Positions 8,537 to 62,864 of a DNA stretch of 62,912 nucleotides are shown here, piece by piece (position 1 is the first letter of the stretch; the number at the start of each line of letters is the position of its first letter). Position numbers and translations under genes: made by a program. Below the pieces are notes generated by a model. The model was given only the letters and a program-made list of their open reading frames with translations. It did no database searches and was not told the origin of the DNA. Origin of the DNA: an uncultured Chitinophagaceae bacterium (GTDB taxonomy: Bacteria > Bacteroidota > Bacteroidia > Chitinophagales > LD1); assembly GCA_964650845.1 (NCBI GenBank), contig CAZYXR010000002.1, positions 15,603-78,514 on the forward strand, in the 5' to 3' direction.

Positions 8537-8558
8537 CAATATAGAATGCCAATAAATG

Positions 8559-10154: not shown

Positions 10155-10300
10155 TCAACTGCAATAATAACGAATATGAACACTTTGATAATAACAGACA
10201 GAGGCTTTTTTCTTTGATTGACAAATCGGGGAGGAATGTAAGCTAAATAGGATTTTGGTCGTATTACTCTTGCAAAATGGGTAAGTTGTTTGGAGTGATA

Positions 10301-10340
10301 CAAAACAAAATAAAGCAATGACCATCGCGATCATTGCTTT
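10301..10340 (-). terminator. rho-independent terminator
   Basis: AAAGCAATGA (10312-10321) pairs with TCATTGCTTT (10331-10340); the minus strand reads ATTTTGTTTTG after the stem. Confidence 0.65.
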
Positions 10341-10370
10341 ATTGCTTGAACTTTTTAAGAGTAATGATAT

Positions 10371-11240
10371 CTATTCTTCAAGAATTACAAAGTTTCTATT
10401 TGGCCCTTGTACTACGTAAGCGATGTTATCGCATGTACCATCTCCGTAATCAACAAACTTAGTGTCAAAAGAAGGGCTTTCGAGTTGAATTATTCCTTTG
10501 TTATAGAAATCATAGTAATCAGTACATTCAGAAAGAATCAATGGCTCAATGATAGTTTGTGTGTAGCTGAATCCATCAGAAGTCAATCCAGTTCCACCTC
10601 CTGTCCAAGCGCAAATCTCACCTTTGTCATCATACATGCCGCCTTCTAGAGTGAAAGTATTAGTGCCTCTAAATTCTATCCCCAAAGATTTGAGATTTGT
10701 TGTAAAATCTACAATGAGCTTGCCATATGGATTGCCAGCGCCATTGAAGCCCAAATTTTCAAGAGAGAAAGTTCCATTTATCAATTCTTCGGTTCCTCTT
10801 GCGAAATTATTAAATGTACATTGTGCAAATCCGCCAGGAAGATCCAAATCAATATCGTTGTAAACAAAATCTACACTTCCTGTGTACAGTAAGCCATCTG
10901 TCCCGATACATCCTGATGGACCAAAGTCCACATGCGCAGTATATGGTAATGATGAGGTGTCTCTAGTAACAGTAGCACAACCCGAATCGTCAAAACTTTC
11001 ATCATCCGTTGCGAGTCGGAACTTTGAGGATTTTAGTTTTAATACGCCAGCAGCAAATGCGTACATTTTCCTTGCTTGACTCAAAGAGTGCATCTGTATT
11101 TCTGGTAATTTTTCATACACTTTTGCATGGCTTTGTTTTTTTGTTACATCTTCAACTTCTGCTTTTTTACATGAGTTCATCATAAACATGCCAGAAGTTG
11201 CTAAGGCAATGACGAAGGAGTTTTTCATAATTTTTTTCAT
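10371..11240 (-). CDS. lipoprotein, function unknown
   Basis: MKKIMKNSFVIALATSGMFMMNSC is a lipoprotein signal. I recognised no family. Confidence 0.5.
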   Translation of the reverse strand: MKKIMKNSFVIALATSGMFMMNSCKKAEVEDVTKKQSHAKVYEKLPEIQMHSLSQARKMYAFAAGVLKLKSSKFRLATDDESFDDSGCATVTRDTSSLPYTAHVDFGPSGCIGTDGLLYTGSVDFVYNDIDLDLPGGFAQCTFNNFARGTEELINGTFSLENLGFNGAGNPYGKLIVDFTTNLKSLGIEFRGTNTFTLEGGMYDDKGEICAWTGGGTGLTSDGFSYTQTIIEPLILSECTDYYDFYNKGIIQLESPSFDTKFVDYGDGTCDNIAYVVQGPNRNFVILEE

Positions 11241-11388: not shown

Positions 11389-12402
11389 ATGAAAAATCTT
11401 TTTTGGGGAGGTTATATTCTTGTTGTTTGCTTATCGCTATTAATAGCAATTGAGTGGGTGTGTATGGGCAGCTTAAAATCTAAAGGAATTGCACAGTCTT
11501 TTTTTTTTAGCAACGAAACAAAAGAAGAATTTACCAACTACTATCAAGGGTTTCGTTTTGATTTAATTGACCCCTTGTTGGGTTGGGGAAGAACACCAAA
11601 AGATGTAACAAGGGCGGGCTATACCTTTGATAATGATTGCGTTTCGTTAGAAAATACTCGGGGCAACATTACTATCATAGTAACAGGGGGATCTACTTCT
11701 GATGTTATTTTACATCCTGAAAATTGGCCTATACTATTGCAAAAACTGCTTAATGAAAACCAAGTATCTGCAAAAGTTGTAGTAGCAGCCGTAGGCGGTT
11801 ACAACAGCGGACAGGAATTGTTTAAAATGGTTCGCGATGGCATAACTTGCAATCCCACTATTCACATTTCGTATTGCGGAGCAAACGAAGTTGAAACCCC
11901 GGCTTATGTGTCGGAGTATGAATATGCCGCATACAAGGATATGATGAATGGGAGCAATGTTCCCGCTTTGCTGCCTAATACAGTTATGGTAATTCGTTCG
12001 TGGATATATTCAAAAGATGAAATGCATCTCAAACAACAAAATGAGTTTATACCTTTTGATTTTTATGCGCGAAATATGCAACTAATGTATGGCATCAGTT
12101 ATGCCAACAACTATACTTTTTTAGGGATATTGCAACCCGTGGTCAATAGCGGGAGCTATCAACAACCTGAAGTGGAAGTCAAGAACGACTGGCGTTCAAC
12201 GCAATACAAGGAAAATTATCCGGCTATGAAATTGTTTGCCGACTCCACTCCTTATATGGCTAATTTTTCAAACGTATTTGACACTTGTACAGGTAAAGTT
12301 TTTTTAGATGATTGCCATTTAACAGATGGTTATCAAAAAATAATTGCAGTGAAAGTATATGACGAATTAGTGAAACGCAATCTATTGACCACAATAAAAT
12401 GA
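11389..12402 (+). CDS. membrane-anchored SGNH/AlgX-like hydrolase or O-acyltransferase (paralogue 1)
   Basis: An N-terminal TM helix, block-I-like IIVTGGSTSDV, GGYNSGQE, and a C-terminal DDCHLTDGY (DxxH block). The motif pattern matches the ORFs at 28100-29330 and 32686-34056. Confidence 0.45.
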   Translation: MKNLFWGGYILVVCLSLLIAIEWVCMGSLKSKGIAQSFFFSNETKEEFTNYYQGFRFDLIDPLLGWGRTPKDVTRAGYTFDNDCVSLENTRGNITIIVTGGSTSDVILHPENWPILLQKLLNENQVSAKVVVAAVGGYNSGQELFKMVRDGITCNPTIHISYCGANEVETPAYVSEYEYAAYKDMMNGSNVPALLPNTVMVIRSWIYSKDEMHLKQQNEFIPFDFYARNMQLMYGISYANNYTFLGILQPVVNSGSYQQPEVEVKNDWRSTQYKENYPAMKLFADSTPYMANFSNVFDTCTGKVFLDDCHLTDGYQKIIAVKVYDELVKRNLLTTIK

Positions 12403-12515
12403 AGCAAAGAGATTTGTCAGATATTTTCAGGTGGTACGAAAACAATATTGCGTTTTTTTGACTTATCAACCCAAGTTGGCTAAGTCGATTTTTTAATCGT
12501 TTTTTTTGATGGTCA

Positions 12516-13274
12516 TCATTTTCCCCGAAACAAAACCTTGTTTTTACTTGTGCTATAAAATGACCTAAAGAAGGAATGAAAATAATATTGTATCAACTCA
12601 TTCAAAACATTTACAATACTTGATAACTTGGTTGATGTGGCGGTGCCGCTTATTCTTTGTTGCTGCTCCACAGGAATTTCTATTATTCTAAATTTCTTTC
12701 GGGACGCCTCAATAATTACTTCCGCAAGCATAAAAATACCGTTTGCCTTTATATCTATTTCTTTAAAAATGGCTGTTCTATATAAGTGAATCCAATTATA
12801 ATCCTTCAGATTTAGCCCAAACAACACAGAAACTAAAAAATGATAGGTCAACGAGTTAAATAGCATCATTTTAGAATAGCCCGCTCTTTGCATTCTATAA
12901 CTAATTACAATGTCGCAATTAGAATGTTCTTGTAAAAAAAGGTTTAGTGTTTTTTCATCAACAGGGCTGTCAACTGGTACGCATATAGCATACTCGGATT
13001 CGCATATATTTAATGCACTTTTTACAGCACCCCCAAAACCTTTATTTGTCAAATGAGTAATGCACTTGACATTTGTATGCTCTGCCAAAAACACATCAAT
13101 AATATGTTGCGAAGTGTCAGAGCTTGCATCATTTACAATAATTATCTCAAAATCAACAAGTAATAAAAAGGCGGAACTATAGGTTTTTGATAATGATTCT
13201 AACAAATATTCCTCTTCATTATACACAGGAACAATGATGGAAAGAGGTGTACTATACTTTGACAATAGATCCAT
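12516..13274 (-). CDS. family 2 glycosyltransferase
   Basis: LSIIVPVYNEEEYL and IIIVNDASSDTS are typical of the GT2 N-terminal region. Confidence 0.85.
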   Translation of the reverse strand: MDLLSKYSTPLSIIVPVYNEEEYLLESLSKTYSSAFLLLVDFEIIIVNDASSDTSQHIIDVFLAEHTNVKCITHLTNKGFGGAVKSALNICESEYAICVPVDSPVDEKTLNLFLQEHSNCDIVISYRMQRAGYSKMMLFNSLTYHFLVSVLFGLNLKDYNWIHLYRTAIFKEIDIKANGIFMLAEVIIEASRKKFRIIEIPVEQQQRISGTATSTKLSSIVNVLNELIQYYFHSFFRSFYSTSKNKVLFRGK

Positions 13275-44560: not shown

Positions 44561-44571
44561 ATTTTAATGTG

Positions 44572-44625
44572 TCGGGGTGGCAAGATTCGAACCTGCGACC
44601 CCCTGCTCCCAAAGCAGGGCACCAT
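44572..44625 (-). tRNA. 3' fragment of tRNA-Pro (anticodon UGG): anticodon arm to acceptor 3' strand only
   Basis: The minus strand reads CCTGC-TTTGGGA-GCAGG-GGGTC-GCAGG-TTCGAAT-CTTGC-CACCCCG-A. No complementary 5' acceptor strand (CGGGGTG) or D-arm follows at the expected spacing. Confidence 0.7.
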
Positions 44626-44772: not shown

Positions 44773-45987
44773 ATGAAAACAAGTGTGGTACTCGTTATTG
44801 ATACCCGCAGAGCTAAAGCGGATGGCAGCTACGCCCTCCTCCTGCGGATTATTCACAACCGACAATCATCGCAAATCTCGTTAGGTATTGCTGTACACGA
44901 GAAAGATTGGGATGATACGCAACGGAAGATTAAGTCTTCTTACCGTGGTACAGAATCAGTTACCCGGTTAAATAACTATCTACAGAAGAAAAAAGCTGAG
45001 GCACTTGATATTATCACCAAGCTTGATGAAGCAAAAACACTCGGTACGCTTTCAGTAACACAACTGAAAGACCTTATTGAACAGCGGACGGATGGGCTAA
45101 GTTTCTTTCGCTACGCTGAAAAACTTATAGCTGAAATGGAATTGATGCACAAAGTTGGCAATGCACGTATCTACAGCATTACGCTGAGTGTTCTTAAAAC
45201 CTTTGCTAAGGATAAAGATTTGTCGTTTAGGGATATCTCCTATGGGTTTCTTATGAAATTTGAAGCAAGTCACCTTACTAAGGGAAACGCCTTAAACGGA
45301 TTGGCAGTGTACACCCGTACCATTAGAGCTATTTTCAATAGGGCTATCAAGGATGGGGTAATCAATAGCGAACTGTATCCATTCAAAAATTACCAAATCA
45401 AAACAACAAAAACCCGAAAACGGGCTATCAATATTGATGCGATAAAGAAGATAGAAGCATTAGAATTAGAACCTAAGCATTCTCTGTTTGATACGCGTAA
45501 TTACTTTCTGATAAGTTTCTATATGCGGGGATTACCTTTTGCTGATCTTGCCCGACTACAACCCACCACCATTATTGATGGACGGGTGTACTATCAACGT
45601 AAAAAGACTGACAAACCATATAACATTAAAATTACACCGGAGATTCAGGCAATCTTAAATATCTATCTCCGTCCCGGAAGTAAGCAACCCTACATATTTC
45701 CTGTCATCAACAGAGAAACCGAAAAAGAGCAATACAAGGATATTGAATGGGCACGTAAACGTTACAACAAGAAGCTTAAAAAACTGGCGACACTCTGCGG
45801 AATAGAGGAAAACCTTACGAGTTATGTAAGTCGCCATAGTTTTGCCTCACGAGCCAAGAACTTAGGAATACCCATTGCAAGTATCTCTGATATGCTCGGA
45901 CATGGGGACAGTAAAACAACTGAAATCTATTTAGATTCTTTACCTAGTGATATCATGGATGATTTCCATGAGCAAATTATTCGTTAG
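44773..45987 (+). CDS. tyrosine-type site-specific integrase (Bacteroidota mobile-element type)
   Basis: An N-terminal arm-binding-type domain (VVLVIDTRRAKADGSYALLLRIIHNRQ), a SAM-like domain, and a catalytic C-terminus with RHSFASRAKNLG, LGHGDSKTTEIYL. Confidence 0.9.
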   Translation: MKTSVVLVIDTRRAKADGSYALLLRIIHNRQSSQISLGIAVHEKDWDDTQRKIKSSYRGTESVTRLNNYLQKKKAEALDIITKLDEAKTLGTLSVTQLKDLIEQRTDGLSFFRYAEKLIAEMELMHKVGNARIYSITLSVLKTFAKDKDLSFRDISYGFLMKFEASHLTKGNALNGLAVYTRTIRAIFNRAIKDGVINSELYPFKNYQIKTTKTRKRAINIDAIKKIEALELEPKHSLFDTRNYFLISFYMRGLPFADLARLQPTTIIDGRVYYQRKKTDKPYNIKITPEIQAILNIYLRPGSKQPYIFPVINRETEKEQYKDIEWARKRYNKKLKKLATLCGIEENLTSYVSRHSFASRAKNLGIPIASISDMLGHGDSKTTEIYLDSLPSDIMDDFHEQIIR

Positions 45988-49074: not shown

Positions 49075-49311
49075 CTATTTTTCCTGTTCTAAATCCTTAC
49101 TGAGTTCCTTCGCTTTTCTTACTTGATCTAATTCACCAACTCTTGTATGCTCACGCTCTTTTTCAAACTCTTTAGCGCCCTCTAAAATACCGCGCTCGTA
49201 CTCATTATCTTGACTCAAACTATCTGATAGCTTGGCATAGAGTTCAGGTTGAAACTTGGCAAGTTTATACCCATCATTAAATCCTTTAATATAGGTTGGT
49301 TCTTGTTCCAT
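49075..49311 (-). CDS. hypothetical protein
   Basis: ORF only; last gene of a three-gene minus-strand unit. Confidence 0.35.
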   Translation of the reverse strand: MEQEPTYIKGFNDGYKLAKFQPELYAKLSDSLSQDNEYERGILEGAKEFEKEREHTRVGELDQVRKAKELSKDLEQEK

Positions 49312-49313
49312 AA

Positions 49314-49598
49314 TTAAAATGGTTCACGTGCATGTTTTTCAATATAGTTTAAGATGGAAGTCCTGTCGTAGAGGATAACCTTATGCTGAGGTTGGGAAAA
49401 GCGAATCAATCCATTATTGCGAAGTTCCTGAAGGGTAGTTTTGCTTTTGATATTGAGTATACTCATCGCTTCATCGCCAGAGATCCATTGTTGCTTTTCT
49501 TTTGAAAGTTCAAACTTGCTATCAACGTGTTCTAGCACCTGCTCTAAGAGCATATAGAAAGCAGGTTTTTCAAGACAAATAACGTGACCGATGTCCAT
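49314..49598 (-). CDS. helix-turn-helix (excisionase/HTH_17-like) DNA-binding protein
   Basis: WISGDEAMSILNIKSKTTLQELRNNGLIRFSQPQHKVILYDRTSILNYIEKH resembles the MerR/excisionase-type HTH common in Bacteroidota mobile elements. Confidence 0.6.
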   Translation of the reverse strand: MDIGHVICLEKPAFYMLLEQVLEHVDSKFELSKEKQQWISGDEAMSILNIKSKTTLQELRNNGLIRFSQPQHKVILYDRTSILNYIEKHAREPF

Positions 49599-49665: not shown

Positions 49666-51315
49666 TTACTGTTGACCGTCAACTTGACGAATAAATTTTT
49701 TATGGCTGAATTTATAGGCCTCCTCTTGTCCGGATAAAATACCACAGCCAATCAAAATATGACCAAGTTCTGTATGTAATTGCGCATCCGTATGATGGCA
49801 AAAAGATTCTATATTACGTCTAGGGTAAAGCTCCACATCCTGATGGTGAATATCTACTATTTTTGATTTAGCAGCCACCCAATTATTCTGTATAGTATTT
49901 TGGAGAACTTCATCAGTTACGGATGAGGAAGGGACAAAGGATTCTCTGTTCATACTTCTAAAGACGTAAACTCTAACTTCAGAATCAGGATCTATATTCC
50001 ATAGTGATAATGCTAATAGACGATGATGTCCCTCAGCTACTTCATATCTTCCTCCCTCTATTCTGGTATTAACCTCAATGAGTGGGGGATTGGTTGGGTA
50101 CAATACTGTATCACCATTCTCAAATAAATTATAAGGGTGATAGAGGTGTGTATTTTCAAAATCTACTTTGTCAATTAGTGCGGTAAGGTAAGGATCAACC
50201 TTTGCGCGCGCTTCAATGAGCTTAAATGATTGATAGACTTTATATCTAACAAAGAAGGAATGTCGGTAATAGATATCTTTTAAAGGTAAGCCAATAAATT
50301 CCCCACGAATGTTGTTATAATGATTAGCTCTTTCATCTCGCTTATGTATTTCACTAAACCAATCAGTATATTCTGTTTCATCCAATCGAGAAAATGTTGT
50401 GGGTTGTACAGGCAACGGACAAGCTAGCTTTTTATCTTCTACCTTACGGAATACTTTATTAATAGTTTTTTCTATCTCAATACGATTTAGTTCATTACTA
50501 TTTTCATAGAGAATGGAGAAGTATTCTCGATCAAATACTCCTGAAGTTACCCTAAGTAATTCTATAGATGTTTTTCTCACTAAATCATCGCTGGTCATGA
50601 CTCCATCTATTGGAAGCCAGTTGAAAATAAACCCCCGTTCGGATTTATTTACTAAAGACTCTTTAAAATCTAGAACAGTGATGGTCACTCCTAGTTTCCA
50701 TAGAGCTACAAACTCTCTACTCGACATAAGTCCGTATGCATGTTTAGGGGCATAGACAAGGTGAATTTTTCCTTGCTTATTCATAAGGAAATAAATAAGC
50801 GTAGGCATTATTTTAAAGACAAAACTTAACTCATCAATACATATGGTAACCTTCTTTATATGGGTTTTATGTAAGTAATGTATTAACTGGAATAAACAGC
50901 CCTCCCATGTATAACTTTTTTTAGTCGTATTTATAGCCTCATCAAAGTATGCATAAGGTTGATTAGGGGAACTCTTAAAACCACCCAACCTGTGATCTTT
51001 CTCTGAAGGTAACGAAAAAATTTTAGCAACAATTTTTATATGTGTAGAGTCCAGTAGTCCATTATTTATATATCGTTGTAGTGTTCTTGTACTAACATTA
51101 TCAATAGAATCCTCTTCCTTTGAAAAATAGATGTCTTCATATGTCCAATAGTGTAACTTAGGTTCACTTTTATTCTTAGCAGAATAGGTCAAATAATCTC
51201 CATCTATTCTTGAGTTAATATCAAGGATAGAGACATCCTCTAATTTTTTCCCCAGCACCATTCTAATTTGCTGCCTGATATATTGTAGATAATCGTTAGA
51301 CAAATCCATAGACAA
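49666..51315 (-). CDS. 549-aa protein with ParB/Srx-like motif (GHHR) and a His-rich C-terminal tail; function unknown
   Basis: PPLIEVNTRIEGGRYEVAEGHHRLLAL (GHHR codons at 50020-50031) fits the ParB N-terminal/sulfiredoxin-fold pattern. I did not recognise the N-terminal ~400 aa. Confidence 0.5.
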   Translation of the reverse strand: MSMDLSNDYLQYIRQQIRMVLGKKLEDVSILDINSRIDGDYLTYSAKNKSEPKLHYWTYEDIYFSKEEDSIDNVSTRTLQRYINNGLLDSTHIKIVAKIFSLPSEKDHRLGGFKSSPNQPYAYFDEAINTTKKSYTWEGCLFQLIHYLHKTHIKKVTICIDELSFVFKIMPTLIYFLMNKQGKIHLVYAPKHAYGLMSSREFVALWKLGVTITVLDFKESLVNKSERGFIFNWLPIDGVMTSDDLVRKTSIELLRVTSGVFDREYFSILYENSNELNRIEIEKTINKVFRKVEDKKLACPLPVQPTTFSRLDETEYTDWFSEIHKRDERANHYNNIRGEFIGLPLKDIYYRHSFFVRYKVYQSFKLIEARAKVDPYLTALIDKVDFENTHLYHPYNLFENGDTVLYPTNPPLIEVNTRIEGGRYEVAEGHHRLLALSLWNIDPDSEVRVYVFRSMNRESFVPSSSVTDEVLQNTIQNNWVAAKSKIVDIHHQDVELYPRRNIESFCHHTDAQLHTELGHILIGCGILSGQEEAYKFSHKKFIRQVDGQQ

Positions 51316-51649: not shown

Positions 51650-51877
51650 ATGAAAAACTATAAAGCAAATGGTACTGAAAATGGACTATGCACATCAATT
51701 CACAAGGAAGAAACCGAAGTTAATATTGATAAAATACTCGCAATTGAACGATTCTCGCGAAAACGCCATTTACGAATCTACGATTTCGAACAAGCGGCAA
51801 TGTGGGAGGCGGAAAGCCAAGCACAACAACAATTAAAAGTTTATAAAGAAACATCCGAAAAGACACAGGATTCATAA
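51650..51877 (+). CDS. hypothetical protein
   Basis: ORF only. Confidence 0.3.
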   Translation: MKNYKANGTENGLCTSIHKEETEVNIDKILAIERFSRKRHLRIYDFEQAAMWEAESQAQQQLKVYKETSEKTQDS

Positions 51878-51945
51878 TAGTGAAACCACTATGAATCCAT
51901 CCCGTGGTTATTGAATTATTTTTTTAATACAGTAAATTTTTAACG

Positions 51946-52989
51946 ATGATTTCTTTTTTCAAAAAATCAACCCGCGAGCACGTAACTACAGACTCGCTAG
52001 AACAAAACCACCAACTCATACTCAAGGATTCGACTAACTCCGCAAAGAGATTAGCGATTCTTAATAAGCCTGAACGTAATGATTCAATGAATGCTTACGA
52101 TGCACCTATTCGGGCAAGATATATGCAGATATATCAGAAAGAACGCAGTCATGTTCAGGACACAGAGATGATTGCAAAAAATACGCTTGCGCAAAAACAA
52201 AGCGAGCAAAATCAGCGAGCAAGACTTACCACAAGAAAAGCAGAATTAAATCTGTTGAAATCTGAAGAAGCCGAGGATCCAAATACTGATACAGAAATCC
52301 GTAAGGGTGGTTGGTCGATACACATAGTCATCATTGCCATAGCCGTCTTTGAAGCTAAAATAACACAGGCAGCTTTTTCACTCTTTGTCAGTTCTAATAA
52401 TTTTGAACAGATAGGAAATGTTGTTTTTCTAACGATAGCATTTGCTGCATTGCCTCACCTTATCGTGAAGCTTATCAGAGCTACCGAAACTAATCCTCAT
52501 AAATGGTACATACGCATAGCAGCAGCTATCATGCTTATTGGCTGTTATGCAGCATTTGCGGTTATCAGATCAATGTATGTAAAGAATATCGGAGGGCTTT
52601 CCTTAAATGAAGTAGAAGTAGGGAGCGTACTGCCTTTAAAACCATATCACTTCATTGCCATTCAAGTATTTCTGCTCGCAATAGCCGTATATCTTGCTAC
52701 ATGCCTACCTACTGATAGAGATAGAACTAGAGAAAAGCGAAGCCTCAGAATTGAACAGTTAGAAAAAATTATTGAGCGCATGGAAGATGAGTTACAAAAC
52801 ATACCAAGTCGCACCTATCAGTCAGAGGTTACAAGACAGGAAGAGCAACTTGTAGAAGAAAAACTCAAGGCTCGCTTACAAGAAATGTTCCGTGAATCAT
52901 GGGCACTTTTTGTATCCGAGAATATCACTCATAGAAATGATGGTGTTCACCCGCTATGCTTCAATGATATCCCCCAATCTCTCTTTTAA
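51946..52989 (+). CDS. membrane protein with charged/coiled-coil flanks, unknown function
   Basis: A central block of ~4-5 hydrophobic helices (WSIHIVIIAIAVF..., FLTIAFAALPHLIV..., IAAAIMLIGCYAAFAVI..., FIAIQVFLLAIAVYLAT) and a Glu/Arg-rich C-terminus. Confidence 0.45.
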   Translation: MISFFKKSTREHVTTDSLEQNHQLILKDSTNSAKRLAILNKPERNDSMNAYDAPIRARYMQIYQKERSHVQDTEMIAKNTLAQKQSEQNQRARLTTRKAELNLLKSEEAEDPNTDTEIRKGGWSIHIVIIAIAVFEAKITQAAFSLFVSSNNFEQIGNVVFLTIAFAALPHLIVKLIRATETNPHKWYIRIAAAIMLIGCYAAFAVIRSMYVKNIGGLSLNEVEVGSVLPLKPYHFIAIQVFLLAIAVYLATCLPTDRDRTREKRSLRIEQLEKIIERMEDELQNIPSRTYQSEVTRQEEQLVEEKLKARLQEMFRESWALFVSENITHRNDGVHPLCFNDIPQSLF

Positions 52990-53010
52990 GTAACAACAAA
53001 AAATACAGCC

Positions 53011-53751
53011 ATGAAAAAGTTTATGCAAGTAGCAGGCTTCCTACTAATTATCGGAGCTACCGGGTGCAGCGAGTATTTTGAAAATACTTTTCCAAATCCT
53101 CCCAGTCATGCAGTTTCATACATCACTGATGATTCACGCGAAGGATTAAAAAGAATCAGTTCACAAGAGTTCAACTCGTTAATACCTATTCGAGATCAAA
53201 ACCTGTATGACGGCTTTACTATTCGCATGAGGTCGATTCATGAAGCGGAAAAAGAGATTTTCCAGGTACAAGTTCAATCTGAACATTGGATTTTCTCAAA
53301 TGAAAACAATCGTGTAGCAACGTTGAAAGCTTTGAGAAATAAAGTCACAATGATGATTGACTCTATTGAAAAAGCACCTTCAGCAAATGCGCCTAAATCG
53401 CGCGTGTATGAGACTATTGCATCCGAGGCACAGTATCTAAACTCTACGAATGCGCGTGATAAACAGATGGTTATTAATTCAGACTTACTTGAAAACACAG
53501 ACCAGTTTAGTTTTTACCGCTCCAAGGATTTTCTTCTTGCACAAAACTCCCCAGAGCAAGCAGTTAAAGAATTAGAGCAAATCGCTCCCATGCCATCACT
53601 TAAAGGAGTGGTAATACTTATTGTTTTTCAACCGCCTAACTATGAAACACAAAAACAGTTTGATGTAGCCGCCCAAACATTCAAACTTTTATTTGAAAAA
53701 CATGGCGCTGAGGTATCGATTCTGCCAAACATCACAGCAGGATATGAATAG
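53011..53751 (+). CDS. lipoprotein, unknown function
   Basis: Lipoprotein signal MKKFMQVAGFLLIIGATGC. Confidence 0.5.
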   Translation: MKKFMQVAGFLLIIGATGCSEYFENTFPNPPSHAVSYITDDSREGLKRISSQEFNSLIPIRDQNLYDGFTIRMRSIHEAEKEIFQVQVQSEHWIFSNENNRVATLKALRNKVTMMIDSIEKAPSANAPKSRVYETIASEAQYLNSTNARDKQMVINSDLLENTDQFSFYRSKDFLLAQNSPEQAVKELEQIAPMPSLKGVVILIVFQPPNYETQKQFDVAAQTFKLLFEKHGAEVSILPNITAGYE

Positions 53752-53905
53752 TAAGCAACCATCCATTATCAATGCAGTAGTTTCTAAAGTGCTTACAGCA
53801 CTTTGGAAGCTATTGTTATTTATTATTTGGGTAGTAAGCGGTGTGCTTCTAAGTCTCATTAAAGAACTCAATTCCAATATCAAAAAGTATTTGTTCGATG
53901 ACTAG
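53744..53905 (+). CDS. small single-pass membrane protein
   Basis: MNSKQPS...LTALWKLLLFIIWVVSGVLLSLI. It overlaps both neighbours by 8 nt. Confidence 0.35.
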   Translation: MNSKQPSIINAVVSKVLTALWKLLLFIIWVVSGVLLSLIKELNSNIKKYLFDD

Positions 53906-55328
53906 AATTATAACACCTCATACATTGTTAAGCGGTGTCGCCACCGTTGGTGAGATCGCTTTAAAATCAGTGTATGATTCGTTGGTGTTCGGGACTGAAT
54001 ACTTGATTGATGAACCAAACGAAGGTTTTGGAAACCTAGAAGACATTGCTTCACCAAGCGGGCGCAGTATTTGTATCAATGGTACTGATTGCCTTACGAA
54101 GCCTGAATACGGGTATAGAAATGCAGTGTTCCTTGGAGGAACTGGATCTGGTAAGAGTACCATTATTGCCGTTCCTAATTTACTAAAAGTAAATAATGCA
54201 AGTATTATCTGCCACGATCCATCAGGTGAGCTTGTAAATAGAACAGGGAAAAGTCTATCAGAGCGTGGTTATCAAGTGCATGTATTGGACTTCAATAACC
54301 CGAACAATTCTATTGGCTTAAATCCGCTCGATTTTATCAAGAAGGATAATGACTCGAACAAACTTGCCGCACATCTAGTAAGAAATTCTCTTGGTACTTC
54401 AAAAGATAAGTTTTGGGAATTGGCAAGTACTGACTTGCTCGCTCTATTCATCAAAGTTATCCTGAGACAAGATAAGTCATACAGAAATCTAACCAATGTA
54501 CTGCACCTATTAAATACGTTTAGTGGTGACCCACAGGCAATAGATCGCTTCATAGCTAAGGTTGCAGACCCTAAAGAGTTTAGAGACTATAAAGCTCTAA
54601 TTCGGAGTAATGAAAAGACGCTTCAGTCAATTGTGATGAGTTGTAAGGCAGCACTATCATTATGGAATGACGATGATATGGGAAAAGTCACTTCAACAAG
54701 CAGTATTGATTTTAATGAGTTTAGAAAAGGCAAGCACGCGCTATTCATTAAAAATACAACCATGGACGCAGAGTACTATCACTCAATTATTAGTTTTTTA
54801 ATAGAGAGCGCACTTAAGGTATTGATGCAGCGATTGCCAGCTAAAAATGATAGACCTGTTTGGGTTATCGTTGACGAGGCATCAACCCTCAATTTGCAAA
54901 GTCTCGATAACATTATTAGTAATAATCGAAAGTATCAGATCAGCTTGATGCTGTTCTTCCAAAATAAAGCCCAAGTCTATTATGCATACGGACAAGAAGC
55001 TGGCAGCAACATTCTTGCAAACTGCTTCACCAAAGTATACTTGGCGGGCACAGACATGAAAACTGCGAAAGAGCTTGAAGAATTGCTTGGATGGAAAAAC
55101 ATTATCAATGACGAGAAAGAGGTAAAACAACCACTCATGACTGCGCAACAAATACGCACCCTGAAATCAAATCAAGCTCTAGCTATCATAGGAAATTATA
55201 GACCTATTAAGATGCAGATGACACCTTACTATGAAAATCCAATACTGCGCAAACTTGCCTCTAACAAGCCATTTATATACACACCGCCTTCACCATTAAC
55301 TAATCCTCCGCTTATTCCTTTTACATGA
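53898..55328 (+). CDS. type IV coupling protein (TraG/TraD/VirD4 family; Bacteroides MobC-type)
   Basis: Walker A FLGGTGSGKST and Walker B VWVIVDEAS, with mob genes downstream. Confidence 0.82.
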   Translation: MTRIITPHTLLSGVATVGEIALKSVYDSLVFGTEYLIDEPNEGFGNLEDIASPSGRSICINGTDCLTKPEYGYRNAVFLGGTGSGKSTIIAVPNLLKVNNASIICHDPSGELVNRTGKSLSERGYQVHVLDFNNPNNSIGLNPLDFIKKDNDSNKLAAHLVRNSLGTSKDKFWELASTDLLALFIKVILRQDKSYRNLTNVLHLLNTFSGDPQAIDRFIAKVADPKEFRDYKALIRSNEKTLQSIVMSCKAALSLWNDDDMGKVTSTSSIDFNEFRKGKHALFIKNTTMDAEYYHSIISFLIESALKVLMQRLPAKNDRPVWVIVDEASTLNLQSLDNIISNNRKYQISLMLFFQNKAQVYYAYGQEAGSNILANCFTKVYLAGTDMKTAKELEELLGWKNIINDEKEVKQPLMTAQQIRTLKSNQALAIIGNYRPIKMQMTPYYENPILRKLASNKPFIYTPPSPLTNPPLIPFT

Positions 55329-55891
55329 AGAAAACGGAGCGAAATAGCAAACTCTATGAGTACCTTGCATCACAGCAATTGCTTGATAAAGGTGAAGAAG
55401 CTATCCGTGCCGGAAAAAAGAAGTATCGCCAAGAATATTTACGCCTCTATAAGCAAAAGCACCGCACCATTATTACCGAACATACTATTGCCCTTAAGCA
55501 ACCAGAGGAAATGTTGCTTGTCCATCATGCAAAACGCAATGGCTACACCATCACTCAATTCATTCGAAAAGCCGCCATTGCATACGCGCAACAGGTGTAC
55601 ATAACACCGCGCCTTGAAATACTTACAAGCCTCTTTCAACAGTTCATTTTACTACGTACCCAAGTTGAGCGCATCCGGCAGGAAAAGCGCGGTTTATTCC
55701 AACGAGACAAGAGCGAAAGCATAGAAGCCCTGTTACAGGAGTTTGAACAGGTATTAACCAAGTCACTGAAACAACCTCAATCATTAGAAGTCCTTATCAC
55801 CCAGACCCTTCAATCTAACCCACGCTTTTTAGACACGTTACAGCAAATAATCAAGCAGCATGATTGTAAAATCAATGGGCAGGAAAAGTAG
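55325..55891 (+). CDS. mobilization accessory (relaxosome) protein
   Basis: ATGA start/stop overlap with the T4CP gene. It sits directly upstream of the relaxase, and GYTITQFIRKAAIAYAQQ is RHH/MobC-like. Confidence 0.5.
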   Translation: MKKTERNSKLYEYLASQQLLDKGEEAIRAGKKKYRQEYLRLYKQKHRTIITEHTIALKQPEEMLLVHHAKRNGYTITQFIRKAAIAYAQQVYITPRLEILTSLFQQFILLRTQVERIRQEKRGLFQRDKSESIEALLQEFEQVLTKSLKQPQSLEVLITQTLQSNPRFLDTLQQIIKQHDCKINGQEK

Positions 55892-56732
55892 CAGTTCGTT
55901 TACCGATTTGCTTACCTATATAACCCGGGATGATGCGGTAATTAAAGATGCTAAAGGCAACCCTTTTCTTATCAGGCATAACGTAATAAGCAAACAGGCT
56001 ACAGGTATAATTAAGGAGTTCGAAAACAATGAGGCAAACAGACGGTTTCAGCGCAAGGGAAAAAACTATTGCTATCACGATATTATTGCCTTCACCGCTG
56101 CCGACACGCAAAAGCTTACTTCTGAAATCTTAGAGGATTTAGCGCGCACCTATATTCACCTCCGCAATGAAAACAGCTTAGCAATTGCAGCTATTCACGA
56201 TGATAAATCCCACCAACACATCCATATCATGCTAAGCGGTGTAGAAGCAGAAACAGGCAAAGCAATACGAGTATCTAAAAAAGAGTATCAAGCCATTAAA
56301 GAGAAGCTCCAAGAATATCAGATTGAGAAATATCCTGAATTAGTATCTATTGTCAATCATGCTCATTCGTTAGAAAGAAACCAAACAGACAAAGAATTTC
56401 AGGTTAAAGCCCGGGAAGGAATATCTCGTAAAGAGGAAATCAAACAGATACTTGCTAATGCATATGAACAATCATATTCTTCGAAAGAGTTTTATGAAAA
56501 GATTACTGAAAACGGTTTAACAACTTATGAGCGAGGAGGGCAGATGGGCATAGAGGATAATAGAAATTATCGGTTGAGCACCTTAGGTTATGATCAAGAA
56601 AGGCTTAACGAGTTAGAACAACGGTTTTACAGAATAGAAGAGCTAGAAAGTCTGAGAGAACAAAATGACAGGGAGATAACACGGGACCTTACGGCTGAAG
56701 AATCACAAAAAAAAGAAAACAACACAACATAG
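55860..56732 (+). CDS. relaxase/mobilization nuclease domain protein
   Basis: N-terminal MIVKSMGRKSSSSFTDLLTYITRDD and the histidine motif HDDKSHQHIHIMLS. Confidence 0.82.
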   Translation: MIVKSMGRKSSSSFTDLLTYITRDDAVIKDAKGNPFLIRHNVISKQATGIIKEFENNEANRRFQRKGKNYCYHDIIAFTAADTQKLTSEILEDLARTYIHLRNENSLAIAAIHDDKSHQHIHIMLSGVEAETGKAIRVSKKEYQAIKEKLQEYQIEKYPELVSIVNHAHSLERNQTDKEFQVKAREGISRKEEIKQILANAYEQSYSSKEFYEKITENGLTTYERGGQMGIEDNRNYRLSTLGYDQERLNELEQRFYRIEELESLREQNDREITRDLTAEESQKKENNTT

Positions 56733-56871: not shown

Positions 56872-58797
56872 TTAAATCGGTTTTACATTATCTTCTCCAA
56901 ACCACTCTATAGCTTTAGTAATAACACTTGGGTCGGGACTATGGTAAAAAACTGCCAAATTTTCCTTTGATCTCGTACAACACACATAGAATATTTTTCG
57001 AGTTCTGTCTAACACACTTTGGTTATCACCTCCCAGAAATAAATTTTTAAAATTATAATTATTCCATCCTCCATTATCTAACACGACAAGAACATTGTCA
57101 TACTCGGCACCTTTGGTTTTATGCTTTGTTGAAAAGGGCGTTTTACCTTCAAGGTAATCAAACAGCTTTTGAAACTCATTAAACGGTACTTGCTTAATCC
57201 TATTATACAAATATTCATTCCTAGCCTGAAACTCTGTTAGTTTATCATCAATCAGACAGATGCCTTTCTCATGCGCTTCATTGATTATCTCTTCAATAGT
57301 TTTATTTCCTACATCAATGAGACTCTCAATATTACTTTTCAGTTCTCGCTTATCAGCAATACGAACAATTTTACTTCTATAATCCGTAGCTCTCAAAAAC
57401 TCATTGTACATCTGCGCTTTATATAGAGCAATTGTTTTCTGAATTTTAAATAGGTGCTTAATCAGATTATCTCTTTTAGAACCCTTCTTGTTTTCATCTT
57501 CTTCATCTTGTTTCTTATCATCCAAAAGTTGATCCTTGTTAACATACATCTTGGAAAAGTCCCCATAGTTATAGTTCAACGCAACTTTATATAGTTCTTG
57601 ATTTTGGTCTATAAATGCCTGCATAGAATCAGTAGGTGTTACTCGTCTTAATTCTCTACCTATTTTACCTTCCGCCAAAGCATTCAAAACATTACTAAAC
57701 GTCATTCCTGTAAAGTCTGTTGTAATACCTGCATCCTTTATGTGTTTTTTTATTCTGTCTCTGAAATTTAAGATTTGATCTTTGTCATAGATATCCATAA
57801 GAGTCCTAAATCCTGCCTTATCTGCAATAAGATTGTGTGTTAAGTTTAACTCTTTAGTTTCGGACGGGTTATCAAAACTCCAATCATGATTATCTTTCAG
57901 ATATTGCTTCGCATGTGACACATCTTCATTTGAAGAATAAATGAACAAGACATTTCCTTCTTTCACTTGTCTATTGAGCATATTAGGAGCAGTTGTATCC
58001 ATTGAAGGCTCTTGTTGAATTCCATCTGTTCTTAACTTATTGGCTAATGCAATCACTCTTAATGGACTCCTTCGATTCTGAACCTTCTTGATTTCATTAA
58101 CTACATCAGCTGTATCTCCTTTATATATATCCAGATTCCCAACCCCATCATCATATATAGACTGCATAGCATCTCCAAAGAAACCTATGATACTTTGCTT
58201 ATCACTTTGCTTAAAATGATTAAGGAAGATATCTACCACCAACTTATTAGTATCTTGATATTCATCAATAAATATAAACCTAAATCTATCCTTCACGATA
58301 GCACTGAGCTTAGGATATTTCCTAAACATAGCATGTGCTATAATCAAAAGATCATCATGAGAAATGACTCCTTCTTTAAGGCGAACGTACTCTTTATACT
58401 GTATCCCTTTTTCGAGGTGATCAAAGTAATTTGCAGGTATAACATCATCCTCATTAATAGATATAGTTGCTTGCTCTTCATTTGCAAGTTCAATAATGAC
58501 CGCTTTTAATTCTTGTTGGAAATGTTTGATATTGTCCCATAAAAAATCGTGTATGGTCGTAACATTAAGATGTTTGTGATTAACCCGTTCTTCGATCTCT
58601 TTTACAGCGGCATTAGTATAAGTCATACAGGCAACTTTTGCTGTAGGATTTTCTGCAATTACTTGTCTAATTACTTGAACTAGTGAATATGTTTTGCCAC
58701 TTCCAGCACCTCCACTCAACAGAAAATTACGCCCATCGTCAATGAGCTTCATAATAGATTGTACTTCGGGTTCTAGTTTTAATCTTTCTTCAGCCAT
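56872..58797 (-). CDS. UvrD/PcrA/Rep-family superfamily 1 helicase (GajB-like)
   Basis: LLSGGAGSGKTYSL (motif I), FIFIDEYQDTN (motif II) and a C-terminal TKHKTKGAEYDNVLVV. I place the start at MAEERLK (58795-58797); the alternative start at 58833 is in-frame. Confidence 0.82.
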   Translation of the reverse strand: MAEERLKLEPEVQSIMKLIDDGRNFLLSGGAGSGKTYSLVQVIRQVIAENPTAKVACMTYTNAAVKEIEERVNHKHLNVTTIHDFLWDNIKHFQQELKAVIIELANEEQATISINEDDVIPANYFDHLEKGIQYKEYVRLKEGVISHDDLLIIAHAMFRKYPKLSAIVKDRFRFIFIDEYQDTNKLVVDIFLNHFKQSDKQSIIGFFGDAMQSIYDDGVGNLDIYKGDTADVVNEIKKVQNRRSPLRVIALANKLRTDGIQQEPSMDTTAPNMLNRQVKEGNVLFIYSSNEDVSHAKQYLKDNHDWSFDNPSETKELNLTHNLIADKAGFRTLMDIYDKDQILNFRDRIKKHIKDAGITTDFTGMTFSNVLNALAEGKIGRELRRVTPTDSMQAFIDQNQELYKVALNYNYGDFSKMYVNKDQLLDDKKQDEEDENKKGSKRDNLIKHLFKIQKTIALYKAQMYNEFLRATDYRSKIVRIADKRELKSNIESLIDVGNKTIEEIINEAHEKGICLIDDKLTEFQARNEYLYNRIKQVPFNEFQKLFDYLEGKTPFSTKHKTKGAEYDNVLVVLDNGGWNNYNFKNLFLGGDNQSVLDRTRKIFYVCCTRSKENLAVFYHSPDPSVITKAIEWFGEDNVKPI

Positions 58798-60899
58798 AGT
58801 AATCCATCTTTGATGTAGCTTGGGATTTGCCAATTATTAAATTGATCTCCATTGTGATAAAGAAGATCTAATGCAAAATGAGTTTTCTTTTTAATACAGT
58901 TTTGAGCTAAGTCATACGGGCTTATTGCATCATCATCAAAGTCTTTTATATTCTTAAGTCCTCTAAACTCACTCTTCTTTTCCTTTATAAAGTCTTTATT
59001 TAACGCAATAAATGCATCTTCAAAACTTCTTCCATGATGTCCATTTTCTTCTGTTTGATAAGTAATCATAATCTCAGCTTCATCTAACACAACTATTCTA
59101 TGGGGAAGGGGTAGAGATTTTAATTCATCCCAAGGTTTAGCGTCAAAAAACGCTTTTAAGGCTGAATTACTGGTGCCTGTACCCTCATTAACGGGACATG
59201 ATATAAAACTTTCTTTTTCACCTTCTTTTTTCGCCCCCTTTTTTACTTCTGCTTTAACAGAGTCAATATCAGTTATAATAAGTGATTTAATACCTAAAAA
59301 GGTTATGAATTTTTTAAATATCTGAGAATATGCACCCACTTCAATAACAGAAACATTTTGAGAGAGTAGTGGTAAATAATCATCTTCGCTTACAGCTGCT
59401 TTATGTTTATTTTCCTCATCAATATCTATCTTGCGCATAAAGGTAGGAATGAGAATTCGTTCTGTATCTCCTTCAATTAAGACCGCTTTATCTGCAAAGA
59501 AAATTTCTGCCCTGCTGATAGTTAAATATTGTTTCAAAAACTGATACTGCATAGGGTCTGCTTCATACTCTCTGCGTAAATCCTTAAGGTTTCTCGCCTT
59601 TACTTTATTATCCTTATCTCGCTTCAAATACTTGATATCGTCAAAATCACTATCAGCCACAATACAAGCCGAATGTGTACTTATGATATACTGTAAATCT
59701 CTTTTGATACCATCTTCTCTCTTTATCCCTTCTCCAAGAAGTTTTTTTATGTTTTTAATAAAAACATATTGCATTTGGGGATGGGTATGTGCCTCCGGTT
59801 CTTCTATAAATAACAGATTGATATCTGCGGGTTTTTTGTCTTTATCTCTTTTAAACTCATGCACGAGAATCTCTATCTCAAAAATCATACTGATCAGATT
59901 CATATACCCCAATCCATTATAATGCTCTGGCAAATGATTATCTGCGTCATGCTTATAAACAACCGTAGTATTTCCCTCAAGAAGCTCTTTGTGTTGAAGT
60001 GTAGATATGATATCCAGTTCTGACTCGTTAGCCTTAATTCCACCAAAGTCCTTCACTTTCTTAAGTACATCAGTAAAAAGTTTTCCGTAAATTTTACTTA
60101 GCTCAACATCTGTCTCTATCAATTTATCCTGAAATTCAGATATAGCTTCAAGTGTATCTTGGGTAGATTCAGCCTTCTTGTAAATGCGTGATGTTTGATT
60201 GGATAAACTTCTACTTGGTTCTTTATTAGCAACCTCACGCTTTGCGTTTATGTATTTGAAGCTTATTATATTATCAAGATTAATTTTCTCATTTTCAAGA
60301 TTGATAAATTTCGTCTCATCCACCAGCCCTGCACCACAATCAAAAGCAAGTGATTTCTTCATCAGTTCAAAGTAATTCTCAATTCTATTTTCCAAGAATT
60401 TATCAAACCCCTTTATCTCATACTGCTTATCTTCAGTTTTCTTTACCGCTTGTTTTTCTTTTTCACTCTCCGTAAATTTCGCAAAATCTGCTCGGAGGTG
60501 ACTATAGTGATTGTAGTCTATTACATACTCAAATCCAAGAACCACTACATTATTATCTGGATCCAAGTCCATCATTATCTGACTTATATTAGAAAGATCA
60601 TCATGCTCCCCATATGTTATATACAGTTTAAGACTTATACCTTGACTAACATACTCGTGCTCTTGAATTTCATTTTCATCTTGGACAACTGTTTCAAGAT
60701 GGTTCTTAAAATCTATACTAAAATCATTATAAGAGAACTTATTTCTATCTGAATGATTTAAAAATTTACTCAAAGCTGTGAGAATGGATGTTTTTCCCGT
60801 ATTGTTTTTCCCAATAACTAAAGAAAGCTCCTCTTCTAAATCCATTGAGAAGTTTTTAAGCAAACGAAAATTCTGTACTTCTAGTTTGAATATTTTCAT
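58779..60899 (-). CDS. OLD-family ATPase + TOPRIM nuclease (GajA-like)
   Basis: Walker A GKNNTGKTS, LLFIEEPEAHTHPQMQ, and TOPRIM VLIEGDTERILIP with LIITDIDS. It overlaps the helicase gene. Confidence 0.82.
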   Translation of the reverse strand: MKIFKLEVQNFRLLKNFSMDLEEELSLVIGKNNTGKTSILTALSKFLNHSDRNKFSYNDFSIDFKNHLETVVQDENEIQEHEYVSQGISLKLYITYGEHDDLSNISQIMMDLDPDNNVVVLGFEYVIDYNHYSHLRADFAKFTESEKEKQAVKKTEDKQYEIKGFDKFLENRIENYFELMKKSLAFDCGAGLVDETKFINLENEKINLDNIISFKYINAKREVANKEPSRSLSNQTSRIYKKAESTQDTLEAISEFQDKLIETDVELSKIYGKLFTDVLKKVKDFGGIKANESELDIISTLQHKELLEGNTTVVYKHDADNHLPEHYNGLGYMNLISMIFEIEILVHEFKRDKDKKPADINLLFIEEPEAHTHPQMQYVFIKNIKKLLGEGIKREDGIKRDLQYIISTHSACIVADSDFDDIKYLKRDKDNKVKARNLKDLRREYEADPMQYQFLKQYLTISRAEIFFADKAVLIEGDTERILIPTFMRKIDIDEENKHKAAVSEDDYLPLLSQNVSVIEVGAYSQIFKKFITFLGIKSLIITDIDSVKAEVKKGAKKEGEKESFISCPVNEGTGTSNSALKAFFDAKPWDELKSLPLPHRIVVLDEAEIMITYQTEENGHHGRSFEDAFIALNKDFIKEKKSEFRGLKNIKDFDDDAISPYDLAQNCIKKKTHFALDLLYHNGDQFNNWQIPSYIKDGLLWLKKD

Positions 60900-61061
60900 A
60901 AGTATGTCAATTAATATTTGTGTAGATGAGTGATGAAAGACTTAGCAGACTACTACTAGCTATTTACATAACTATGTTATCTTATTTCGGCAATCTGTAA
61001 AGACGCTATAATTTATAGATGAGAGATGTTACTCGTTCACCATAACAATTTCTATATGCTC

Positions 61062-61745
61062 TTAAAAGGAGTAGGGCTGCCAAGATTTCCTCCGTTGAAA
61101 GCTTCTGTGATGGATATCTGAGACACTAATCGAAATATACCAATGAGAAAAGATTCTACTCTCAAAATCTCTTACATTCGTTATGACTTTTCTTCCATAG
61201 TTATTTATGTTTTCTTGACTGGGCCATGGATCTCGAATAACAAGTTGCTGGATATAATGAATTCCATTATCACATTGCCATGTTATCCCTGTGATGATTA
61301 CAGCATGTCCTATTGAGGATCCTTGGGGACGATAAGCTACCATAACAGGCCTGTTTTCTTGTAGCTCTCTTATGACAGCATTAAAATCAATATCACCTTT
61401 CTCCAATGTCGATGAAATACAAACCCTCTTCAATTGATTATGATATATATTATGGCAGAAATTTAGATTCCCTGTAATTACATAATCTGTCGCAGGGCAA
61501 TTTCTAGGATTATTGAAATGATCAGTAGCACAATGATTTCTGGCTAAATCTTCTTGCGATATTTCAATTCCGTAATGAGCAGCAATCGTTTGAATACACG
61601 CAGCTGCACACCAGTTAGTTTGCCGTTGATGTGAATAAATTATATTGAAATTGCGTGTATCAATACCTGCGCTGTAAGTAGGTAGATAAGTACGTTGCGG
61701 TTGAAATGATCTTAAAAAAAGATTGACAGAAGAAAGAACGTCCAT
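61062..61745 (-). CDS. papain-fold (C39-like) cysteine peptidase domain protein
   Basis: QTNWCAAACIQTIAAHYG (Cys), SIGHAVIITG (His) and VIRDPW (Asp) occur in the order expected for C39-like peptidases. No signal peptide seen. Confidence 0.5.
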   Translation of the reverse strand: MDVLSSVNLFLRSFQPQRTYLPTYSAGIDTRNFNIIYSHQRQTNWCAAACIQTIAAHYGIEISQEDLARNHCATDHFNNPRNCPATDYVITGNLNFCHNIYHNQLKRVCISSTLEKGDIDFNAVIRELQENRPVMVAYRPQGSSIGHAVIITGITWQCDNGIHYIQQLVIRDPWPSQENINNYGRKVITNVRDFESRIFSHWYISISVSDIHHRSFQRRKSWQPYSF

Positions 61746-61907
61746 CGGAAATTTAATTTGGTAGAATGCAAAAATACCATCTAAGGAACATTACAAAGGG
61801 ATCTTTTCCACAGTATAATGTTACTAGCTTAAAAATTAGTCATAATAACTCTACCATTTAATAGGACTATAAAGAATTTAGTTTCAGTTATAATTAAAAA
61901 CAGAACC

Positions 61908-62864
61908 ATGTACGTATTCACAAAAGCAATCAAAGACTTTATCAATCATTGTAAATTTGAAAAGAACCTTTCTCCTAAAACTATCAAAGCCTATGAGATT
62001 GATTTAAAACAATTCTATCAATTCCTTTTACAAAGGCAGTATTCTATAGAAGTTAGTAGGATAACAAAAAGTGAAATCCGTGAGTATTTGGAGACAATTT
62101 CAACTCTGAAACCTAAATCTATCAAGAGAAAAATTGCTACTACTAAAGCAATGTTCAACTACTTAGAATTTGAAGAGTACGTTTCAATAAATCCTCTGCG
62201 AAAAATGAAAATACGTATTAAAGAGCCTAAGCAACTCCCCAAAGTAATGCAATCACAGGAAGTCGAAACTATCCTAAGATATGCTTATCAGCAATTAACT
62301 ACTGTGACACAGACTGAACACTATAAATATTTTGAAGCCTTGCGCAATGTAGTTGTTGTAGAACTGCTGTATGCCACAGGCGCAAGAGTTTCAGAAATAT
62401 CGGGCTTAAAACTAGATACGATCGAAATAGCTACTGGTTCAGTAATTATAAAGGGAAAAGGAGACAAAGAACGTAGTGTTGAAATTTGCAACCCCGATAC
62501 CCTTGTAGTGTTGAATAAATACTATGCACTTTATGCTGATAAAGTTACACAGTCTGGCAACTTCTTTTTGGTAAATCGTTTTGGCAAAAAATTGTCTGAG
62601 CAATCAATACGAGGTATTGTAAAAAATCTCACCATTAGATCAGGAATGAATCGGCATATTACACCACATGTTTTTAGGCATTCTCTTGCAACATTATTAC
62701 TAGAAAATGATGTAGATATAAAATACATCCAAGTGTTGCTTGGGCATAGTTCAATCATGACTACTCAAATTTATACTCATGTGAACAAAATAAAGCAGCG
62801 TGAGATTCTAAAAACTAAGCATCCGCGAAGGGGGTTCTCAATGTTACCTGTCAATACAGGATAA
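61908..62864 (+). CDS. tyrosine recombinase (XerC/XerD-like)
   Basis: A SAM-like N-domain (FINHCKFEKNLSPKTIKAYEIDLKQF), ATGARVSEI, HVFRHSLATLL and LLGHSSIMTTQIYTHV. Confidence 0.88.
   Translation: MYVFTKAIKDFINHCKFEKNLSPKTIKAYEIDLKQFYQFLLQRQYSIEVSRITKSEIREYLETISTLKPKSIKRKIATTKAMFNYLEFEEYVSINPLRKMKIRIKEPKQLPKVMQSQEVETILRYAYQQLTTVTQTEHYKYFEALRNVVVVELLYATGARVSEISGLKLDTIEIATGSVIIKGKGDKERSVEICNPDTLVVLNKYYALYADKVTQSGNFFLVNRFGKKLSEQSIRGIVKNLTIRSGMNRHITPHVFRHSLATLLLENDVDIKYIQVLLGHSSIMTTQIYTHVNKIKQREILKTKHPRRGFSMLPVNTG

Follow-up and report, generated by a model that had tools for sequence, protein, structure and literature searches.

The DNA analysed here, a stretch of 62,912 nucleotides from an uncultured Chitinophagaceae bacterium (contig CAZYXR010000002.1; hereafter the window), carries a genomic island that, judged by its gene content, is an integrative mobilizable element (IME). 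On the minus strand of this island, the open reading frame (ORF) at 49666-51315 encodes a protein, here called X, which belongs to a real, conserved, very rare and unannotated family. The C-terminal part of X probably has a divergent fold of the ParB/sulfiredoxin (Srx) type, for which the evidence is moderate rather than strong, and the gene adjoins the mobilization operon of the element in each of the three genomic contexts that could be read. We tentatively favour, while holding it somewhat short of probable, the reading that X is a nucleoside triphosphate (NTP)-binding, DNA-acting accessory factor in the life cycle of a family of Bacteroidota IMEs; its NTP binding, its DNA target and its place in the life cycle are what we infer.

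X belongs to a rare, conserved protein family

A preliminary description of this DNA, made from the sequence alone, had singled out an orphan ORF of 549 codons with a GHHR tetrapeptide at 50020-50031, and both features were borne out. The tetrapeptide corresponds to residues 429-432 of X and lies inside PPLIEVNTRIEGGRYEVAEGHHRLLAL. The true start of X is probably the ATG at 51309 (residue 3), giving a protein of 547 amino acids (aa); we prefer this start because Met1 of the closest homologue, P0002, aligns with residue 3 of X. X had no match in profile scans with Pfam, NCBIfam or PADLOC, and it contains no Walker A motif. The comparison with defence systems that had been proposed for it returned no family of PADLOC-DB 2.0 at E<=1, either for X or for the products of its two small neighbours, an HTH_17 gene and a 78-aa ORF. 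In contrast, the Gabija genes of the same island scored 1e-238 to 1e-284 with the same defence profiles.

Scanning all 1.84 billion cluster representatives with HMMER brought up eight relatives of X, each in a cluster of 1-2 sequences. Among about 15 billion proteins the family thus numbers 10 sequences, every one of them unnamed or "hypothetical" (P0010 being the full-length version of P0008), and its clusters derive from metagenome or Logan assemblies. The closest relative, P0002, is about 36-37% identical to X across 98% of its length; P0003 is a fragment, and P0004-P0009 are proteins of 317-575 aa with 20-26% identity in the family alignment. Three general homologue searches with X returned P0002 alone or nothing. 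No homologue was found by tblastn among PLSDB plasmids or INPHARED phages, or by pattern scans of GTDB genome contigs and IMG/VR viral contigs; 400 genomes of the same phylum gave spurious matches only, and a scan of metagenome contigs recovered a single locus, L005. Pfam had no match in any of nine family members, and searches of PDB sequences with X, with the family profile or with residues 51-115 of X gave nothing usable.

Conservation within the family is concentrated towards the C-terminus. In an alignment of nine sequences, the invariant positions are G228, F261, Y316, R351, K359, Q362, Y406, E414, N416, R423, E425, G429, R432, W479 and H507. Most of this set (R351, K359, Q362, Y406, E414, N416, R423, E425, G429 and R432) falls within residues ~340-460, and most invariant polar residues lie within 340-440; the N-terminal ~120 residues are poorly conserved. 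The preliminary description had taken GHHR as a ParB/Srx signature. The tetrapeptide occurs five times in the six-frame ORFs of the host genome, so that by itself it does not rise above chance, and it is the conservation of the motif that counts. The conserved family motif is E-x-x-x-G-x-x-R, in which E425, G429 and R432 are invariant among relatives at 20-37% identity; every member has EG..R, TG..R or AG..R, and position 431, the second His of GHHR, may be H, N, S, C or A. Of this signature the Gly and Arg are conserved and the second His is not. A second feature drawn from the same sequence, a His-rich tail, turned out to be peculiar to X, which contains 6.1% His compared with 1.7-2.6% in its relatives; H507 is the sole invariant His.

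Between the variable N-terminus and the conserved C-terminal region lies a central domain (residues 130-300), which showed a beta-alpha-beta pattern at a pLDDT of 50-55 in the AlphaFold (AF2) model. Foldseek with the full-length model gave no meaningful structural match for it.

The C-terminal part of X probably has a ParB/Srx-type fold

Proteins that belong to the ParB/Srx superfamily are built on a core of four strands and two helices and have in common an active-site Arg that serves in NTP binding, in DNase activity or in both (PMC5512222). Orphan ParB-fold proteins that lack Box III are common on mobile elements; as a rule such orphans have lost Box III and kept the GxxR of Box II, through which they bind ATP, CTP or GTP (10.1101/2025.10.10.680097). 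The assignment of X to this superfamily draws on comparisons of both sequence and predicted structure. A hidden Markov model (HMM) of the C-terminal part of the family (residues 385-475) was searched against the host genome's 4964 ORFs that are 100 aa or longer, and the only ParB of the host, a chromosomal protein, ranked first after X itself, at an E-value of 0.028 that falls short of the inclusion threshold. The register of this alignment is correct, with YPxNxPiLE over GVIQPITV and RYEVAEGxxR over RYQLIAGERR. The ParB-like family phrog_1033 matched residues 411-455 of X at E 0.009, and a search of the host genome with phrog_1033 recovered chromosomal ParBs only.

A low-confidence structure prediction points in the same direction. 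AF2 models were made without templates from three sequences, and a model of the crop comprising residues 330-549 (pLDDT 43.3, predicted TM-score 0.45) has a strand-strand-[GxxR]-helix-strand pattern in which the invariant G429 and R432 fall at the junction of strand and helix, as they do in the superfamily. When this low-confidence model (pLDDT 43.3) was compared with the PDB using Foldseek, a tool that the preliminary description had suggested, Srx and ParB N-domains came out on top: the top 14 matches were all of the ParB/Srx fold and included human sulfiredoxin 1xw4 (probability 0.84, E 0.1, TM-score 0.45), the pNOB8 ParB N-domain and Atu1540. In BFVD, the best-ranking matches were ParB-like phage proteins (probabilities 0.77 and 0.66). 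As a rough control, the failed full-length model (pLDDT 35.6) gave random alpha/beta matches only.

Several results weigh against this assignment. X passed no curated HMM threshold, and PF02195 and the NCBIfam ParB models gave no match; in a PHROG scan of nine members only X touched phrog_1033, and that marginally; and when the family was compared with 30 chromosomal ParBs using hhalign, the best alignment was off-register, the expected register scoring E 0.34. Both AF2 models are of low confidence (pLDDT 35.6 and 43.3), and every Foldseek E-value is at least 0.037. Neither a canonical Box I (helix and short loop) nor Box III can be recognised in X: a conserved helix with K359 and Q362 does precede the GxxR motif, with ~30 residues between them, and no member of the family has an ENxxR (Box III) downstream of Box II. 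No DNA-binding domain was confirmed either, and no helix-turn-helix (HTH) was detected; an XRE-like HTH suspected at residues 51-115 was dropped after the search of PDB sequences described above. The likeness to ParB/Srx could thus be coincidental, X having an unrelated fold and function and EGxxR serving another purpose. The lack of any Pfam, NCBIfam or PDB sequence match, the single PHROG contact, the non-significant hhalign result in the expected register and the low confidence of the models all speak for this. However, three individually weak lines agree on both fold and register, namely the host ParB as top non-self HMM match, the Foldseek matches in PDB and BFVD, and the Gly and Arg at the strand-helix junction, and we consider a coincidence unlikely.

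X keeps a fixed position beside a mobilization operon

Two relatives of X could be read in context, P0002 at locus L001 and P0004 at L005, which together with the window make three contexts. All three hosts point to the Bacteroidota, since each carries proteins with a type IX secretion system sorting domain (PF18962). In 3/3 contexts X adjoins, divergently, an operon for a transmembrane (TM) protein, a lipoprotein, a type IV coupling protein (T4CP), an accessory protein and a relaxase. Compared with the window copies, the proteins of L001 and L005 are, respectively, 40% and 41% identical for the relaxase, 33% and 40% for the T4CP, 36% and 32% for the accessory protein, 28% and 26% for the lipoprotein, and 28% and 23% for the TM protein. 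The identities of X itself, 36% and 28%, are comparable to those of the operon proteins (23-41%), which suggests that X diverged in step with the backbone of the element. The cargo slot beyond the relaxase differs from element to element: it holds Gabija in the window, an Mrr_cat nuclease and an Xer-like recombinase in L005 (2067-4206), and an HATPase_c_3 protein and a DUF7830/DUF6035/CoiA-nuclease protein in L001 (115-3839). In L005, two genes run convergently towards the 3' end of the X homologue (11878-12992), a 63-aa SymE-like ORF and the gene for an ArdC anti-restriction protein (ArdcN plus MPTase-PolyVal).

A search through the operon lipoprotein led to sibling elements that are more distant. 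Four of them, in G079, G083, G107 and G055, have the mobilization operon and no match to the X family HMM; the integrase of the G079 element is 61% identical to that of the window, yet X is missing there. X is thus best described, from these gene contents, as an accessory backbone gene of an IME sub-lineage and not as a universal one. The genes at the position of X in the X-less elements, which encode a serine recombinase or proteins of no known family, are uninformative. In the G079 element (L084 2443-6383), ORFs of 941 aa and 370 aa without Pfam matches lie between the HTH_17 pair and the mobilization operon, and they may be uncharacterised cargo or functional analogues of X. The G083 element carries, as cargo between its mobilization operon and its HTH_17 pair (L085 1943-4837), a 964-aa Cap4-nuclease/NB-ARC/TPR protein, an Avs-like defence protein of the STAND (signal transduction ATPases with numerous domains) class.

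The intergenic region between X and the mobilization operon contains an inverted repeat ending in ATCCTG|T on the X-sense strand, and L001 has a similar inverted repeat followed by ATCCTGC, likewise on the X-sense strand, at 9759-9810. The inverted repeat with ATCCTG(T/C) of the two elements resembles a MOBP-type nic site of the RP4 kind. The combination was found in two of the three elements, L005 lacking it, and no motif is common to all three intergenic regions between X and the operon; the region upstream of X holds no repeat array. The assignment of 51865-51898 as an origin of transfer (oriT) is therefore weak and is put forward as a lead only. Should this be the oriT, then in the orientation that it has X would enter a recipient ahead of all other genes.

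Possible functions of X

Our tentatively favoured reading is that X would bind NTP and act on the DNA of its own element, and would in this way govern or support excision, establishment or transfer. The invariant Arg of Box II (G429-x-x-R432) together with R351, K359, Q362, E414, N416, R423 and E425 would form the nucleotide-binding pocket, and the ParB/Srx core would be the functional core of the protein, placed after the conserved alpha/beta domain and the variable N-terminus. X would be either a DNA-binding switch gated by NTP, in the manner of KorB and VirB, or a nickase under NTP regulation. Transcription of the gene leads away from the region that holds the transfer-operon promoter and the oriT candidate, and it appears to be transcribed together with the Xis-like HTH_17 pair in two of the three elements. 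We favour a helper of the element over a stand-alone defence protein because the position of X beside the mobilization operon is fixed, while the defence cargo lies elsewhere and varies. Two points count against a role in the element's own life cycle: the HTH_17 pair is not beside X in L005, and X is absent from the four sibling elements, so that basic excision and mobilization can proceed without it, and it could be a conflict gene.

The last possibility deserves to be set out in full. X could be a conflict effector of the element, a ParB-like DNase regulated by NTP, with the restriction systems of the host, competing mobile elements or phages as its target; this would mean anti-defence, Osa-like fertility inhibition or defence, perhaps at an early stage in the recipient because X lies on the probable leading side of the oriT. 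On mobile elements, domains of the ParB/Srx type are frequently nonspecific DNases under NTP control (Osa, DdrB-like ParB, GmrS; PMC5512222), the absence of X from sibling elements is what one would expect of an accessory conflict gene, ArdC and SymE-like genes lie immediately beside X in L005, the same island carries Gabija, and the orientation of the candidate oriT would, on the RP4 nic model, put X first into the recipient. Yet X has no PADLOC match and no recognised second nuclease or sensor domain. Its position is fixed and it has co-diverged with the backbone in three elements, whereas defence cargo typically occupies variable hotspots. Such extreme rarity, with no homologue among the plasmids and phages searched, is seldom seen in a defence or anti-defence gene that succeeds, and the oriT assignment on which early entry depends is weak, with no counterpart in L005. 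We therefore regard a conflict effector as possible and somewhat unlikely. The suggestion in the preliminary description that X might be a single-protein defence system is not supported, as PADLOC finds no match and the gene keeps its place beside the mobilization operon in every context read; the alternative offered there, a possible factor for maintenance of the element, fits the context better than defence does. A related and quite unlikely reading is that X founds a new family of NTP-dependent effectors of the ParB/Srx fold at the leading edge of Bacteroidota mobilizable elements, beside the oriT; these would act in the recipient just after entry, where they could shield the incoming DNA, help it to become established or turn on the DNA of rivals.

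That X might be a classical partition ParB, the centromere-binding protein of the excised element, is very improbable and can be regarded as effectively refuted. Only the ParB-like motif speaks for it. No ParA-type gene, and likewise no dnd or ssp gene, was present in those larger ORFs of the island that were scanned with Pfam, the LG(R/K)GL motif for ParA binding is absent from all 10 family sequences, and the window contains no match with three or fewer mismatches to the parS consensus TGTTTCACGTGAAACA, although a non-canonical centromere is conceivable. In addition, the ParB-like core is C-terminal (~340-460 of 549) and not N-terminal, no HTH or dimerisation domain was recognised, and the ParB models of Pfam and NCBIfam do not match. 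The earlier statements that ParA, parS and dnd/ssp genes are missing and that X is not a classical partition protein thus both agree with what we found. Having weighed these alternatives, we retain, tentatively, an NTP-binding accessory factor of the element's own life cycle as the reading that we favour.

Comparison with known systems

The closest parallels to X are the orphan ParB-CTPase-fold proteins (10.1101/2025.10.10.680097), which, like X, have a Box II GxxR with an invariant Arg, no recognisable Box III and no ParA partner, and reside on mobile elements; the best structural and sequence matches of X are likewise Srx and ParB N-domains. Unlike them, X carries its predicted fold C-terminally, after an alpha/beta domain, in a protein of 549 aa; it is missed by PF02195 and other HMMs, the loop that comes after its Box I helix has ~30 residues instead of ~6, and its family has only ~10 members. 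KorB of RK2 and VirB of pINV are ParB-fold proteins without a partition role, carried near control regions of transfer-proficient elements, and they offer a plausible model of an NTP-gated regulator. However, they have a canonical N-terminal ParB domain and a central HTH and are detected by ParB HMMs, none of which holds for X, and no operator sites for X were identified.

Osa of pSa and the DdrB-like ParB domains (PMC5512222) have a ParB/Srx core with a conserved active-site Arg, as is predicted for X, and like X they are carried by mobile elements. The DdrB-like domains also have a conserved Asn that ends the strand before the motif strand, as N416 does in X. Osa is a single domain of ~190 aa, the DdrB-like domains belong to phage polyvalent proteins, and X matches neither by sequence. 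DndB, SspE and GmrS (DUF262) have a [D/E]-G-x-x-R signature on a ParB/Srx scaffold, as X probably does, but the motif of X is EGxxR without the Gln of DGQHR or DGQQR, X has no fused HNH/DUF1524 nuclease, and PADLOC does not match it. The setting differs as well, in that dnd and ssp genes are missing from the scanned part of the island and X lies outside the variable defence slot.

Neighbouring genes and the island

The features of the island are collected in the table. The HTH_17 protein next to X is likely a recombination directionality factor (RDF). It was described earlier as part of a three-gene minus-strand unit with X and the 78-aa ORF, an arrangement that is kept in L001, where the HTH_17/78-aa pair also lies 3' of X (48% and 49% identity), and not in L005. 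Homologues of the HTH_17 protein occur in the X-less elements of G079 and G083 (58% and 46% identity), and the pair there lies at the very end of the element (L084 6462-6979 and L085 4841-5343). A pair at element ends fits an excisionase/RDF module in which the small partner is of no known family.

Table. Features of the island in the window, in order of position
Feature	Position	Strand	Remarks
3' fragment of tRNA-Pro(TGG)	44570-44625	-	attachment (att) repeat and element end; 50 nt identical to the intact tRNA-Pro on contig C4
Tyrosine integrase	44773-45987	+	
78-aa ORF	49075-49311	-	closely coupled with the HTH_17 gene
HTH_17 (Xis/AlpA-type) small DNA-binding protein	49314-49598	-	PF12728, E 5.5e-7; 67 nt downstream of X
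X ORF	49666-51315	-	549 codons, TTG at 51315 to stop at 49666-49668
Probable divergent ParB/Srx (ParB-CTPase-fold) domain of X, residues ~340-460	49936-50298	-	invariant columns, family HMM against host ParB, AF2 crop with Foldseek, phrog_1033
Box II-like P motif E-G-H-H-R, residues 428-432 of X	50020-50034	-	
Central alpha/beta domain of X, residues ~130-300	50416-50928	-	best conserved block between close relatives (TICIDELSFVFK...GFIFNW)
Candidate oriT	51865-51898	-	inverted repeat with 14-bp arms ending ATCCTG|T, X-sense strand; ~50 nt upstream of the mobilization operon
Mobilization operon	51946-56732	+	divergent from X; five genes, from Pfam: 347-aa TM protein, 246-aa lipoprotein, T4CP (53898-55328), 188-aa accessory protein, MobA/VirD2-type relaxase (55860-56732)
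GajB (Gabija cargo)	56872-58833	-	1.8e-238; not linked to X
GajA (Gabija cargo)	58779-60899	-	7.7e-284; not linked to X

The slot 3' of the relaxase gene (56872-62864) holds Gabija, a C39-like peptidase and an Xer-like recombinase. The island extends past the end of its contig (C2), which coincides with the end of the window, and the intact tRNA-Pro lies beside a tRNA-Ser on contig C4 of the same genome; the island, or a tandem array, may continue onto that contig. In the part of contig C4 that was read (1-10830), the first 10.7 kb encode a serine recombinase, a TraD-like ATPase, a PfkB kinase, an ORC-CDC6-like protein (PF24389), PRTase-CE (PF24390) and an HAD hydrolase, and this stretch looks like a second conflict-type island.

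Significance

Much current work concerns ParB-CTPase-fold proteins that act outside chromosome segregation, and the roles of the orphan versions on mobile elements are mostly undefined. As far as sequences and models allow us to say, with moderate confidence, the X family is a new and very rare variant, in its architecture, within a known superfamily, and it goes with a family of IMEs that has been poorly studied. So rare a family has a limited general impact. It would nevertheless add an architecture that current HMMs miss, an alpha/beta domain followed by a C-terminal ParB/Srx core, and it ties this architecture to a defined position in little-studied mobilizable islands of Bacteroidota that ferry defence systems such as Gabija. 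Were the leading-edge reading to be true, X would represent a new class of factor, serving establishment/anti-defence or fertility inhibition, in which the alpha/beta partner domain is novel. If instead X has a role in the control of excision, establishment or transfer, as we tentatively favour, it would help to explain how these islands are regulated.

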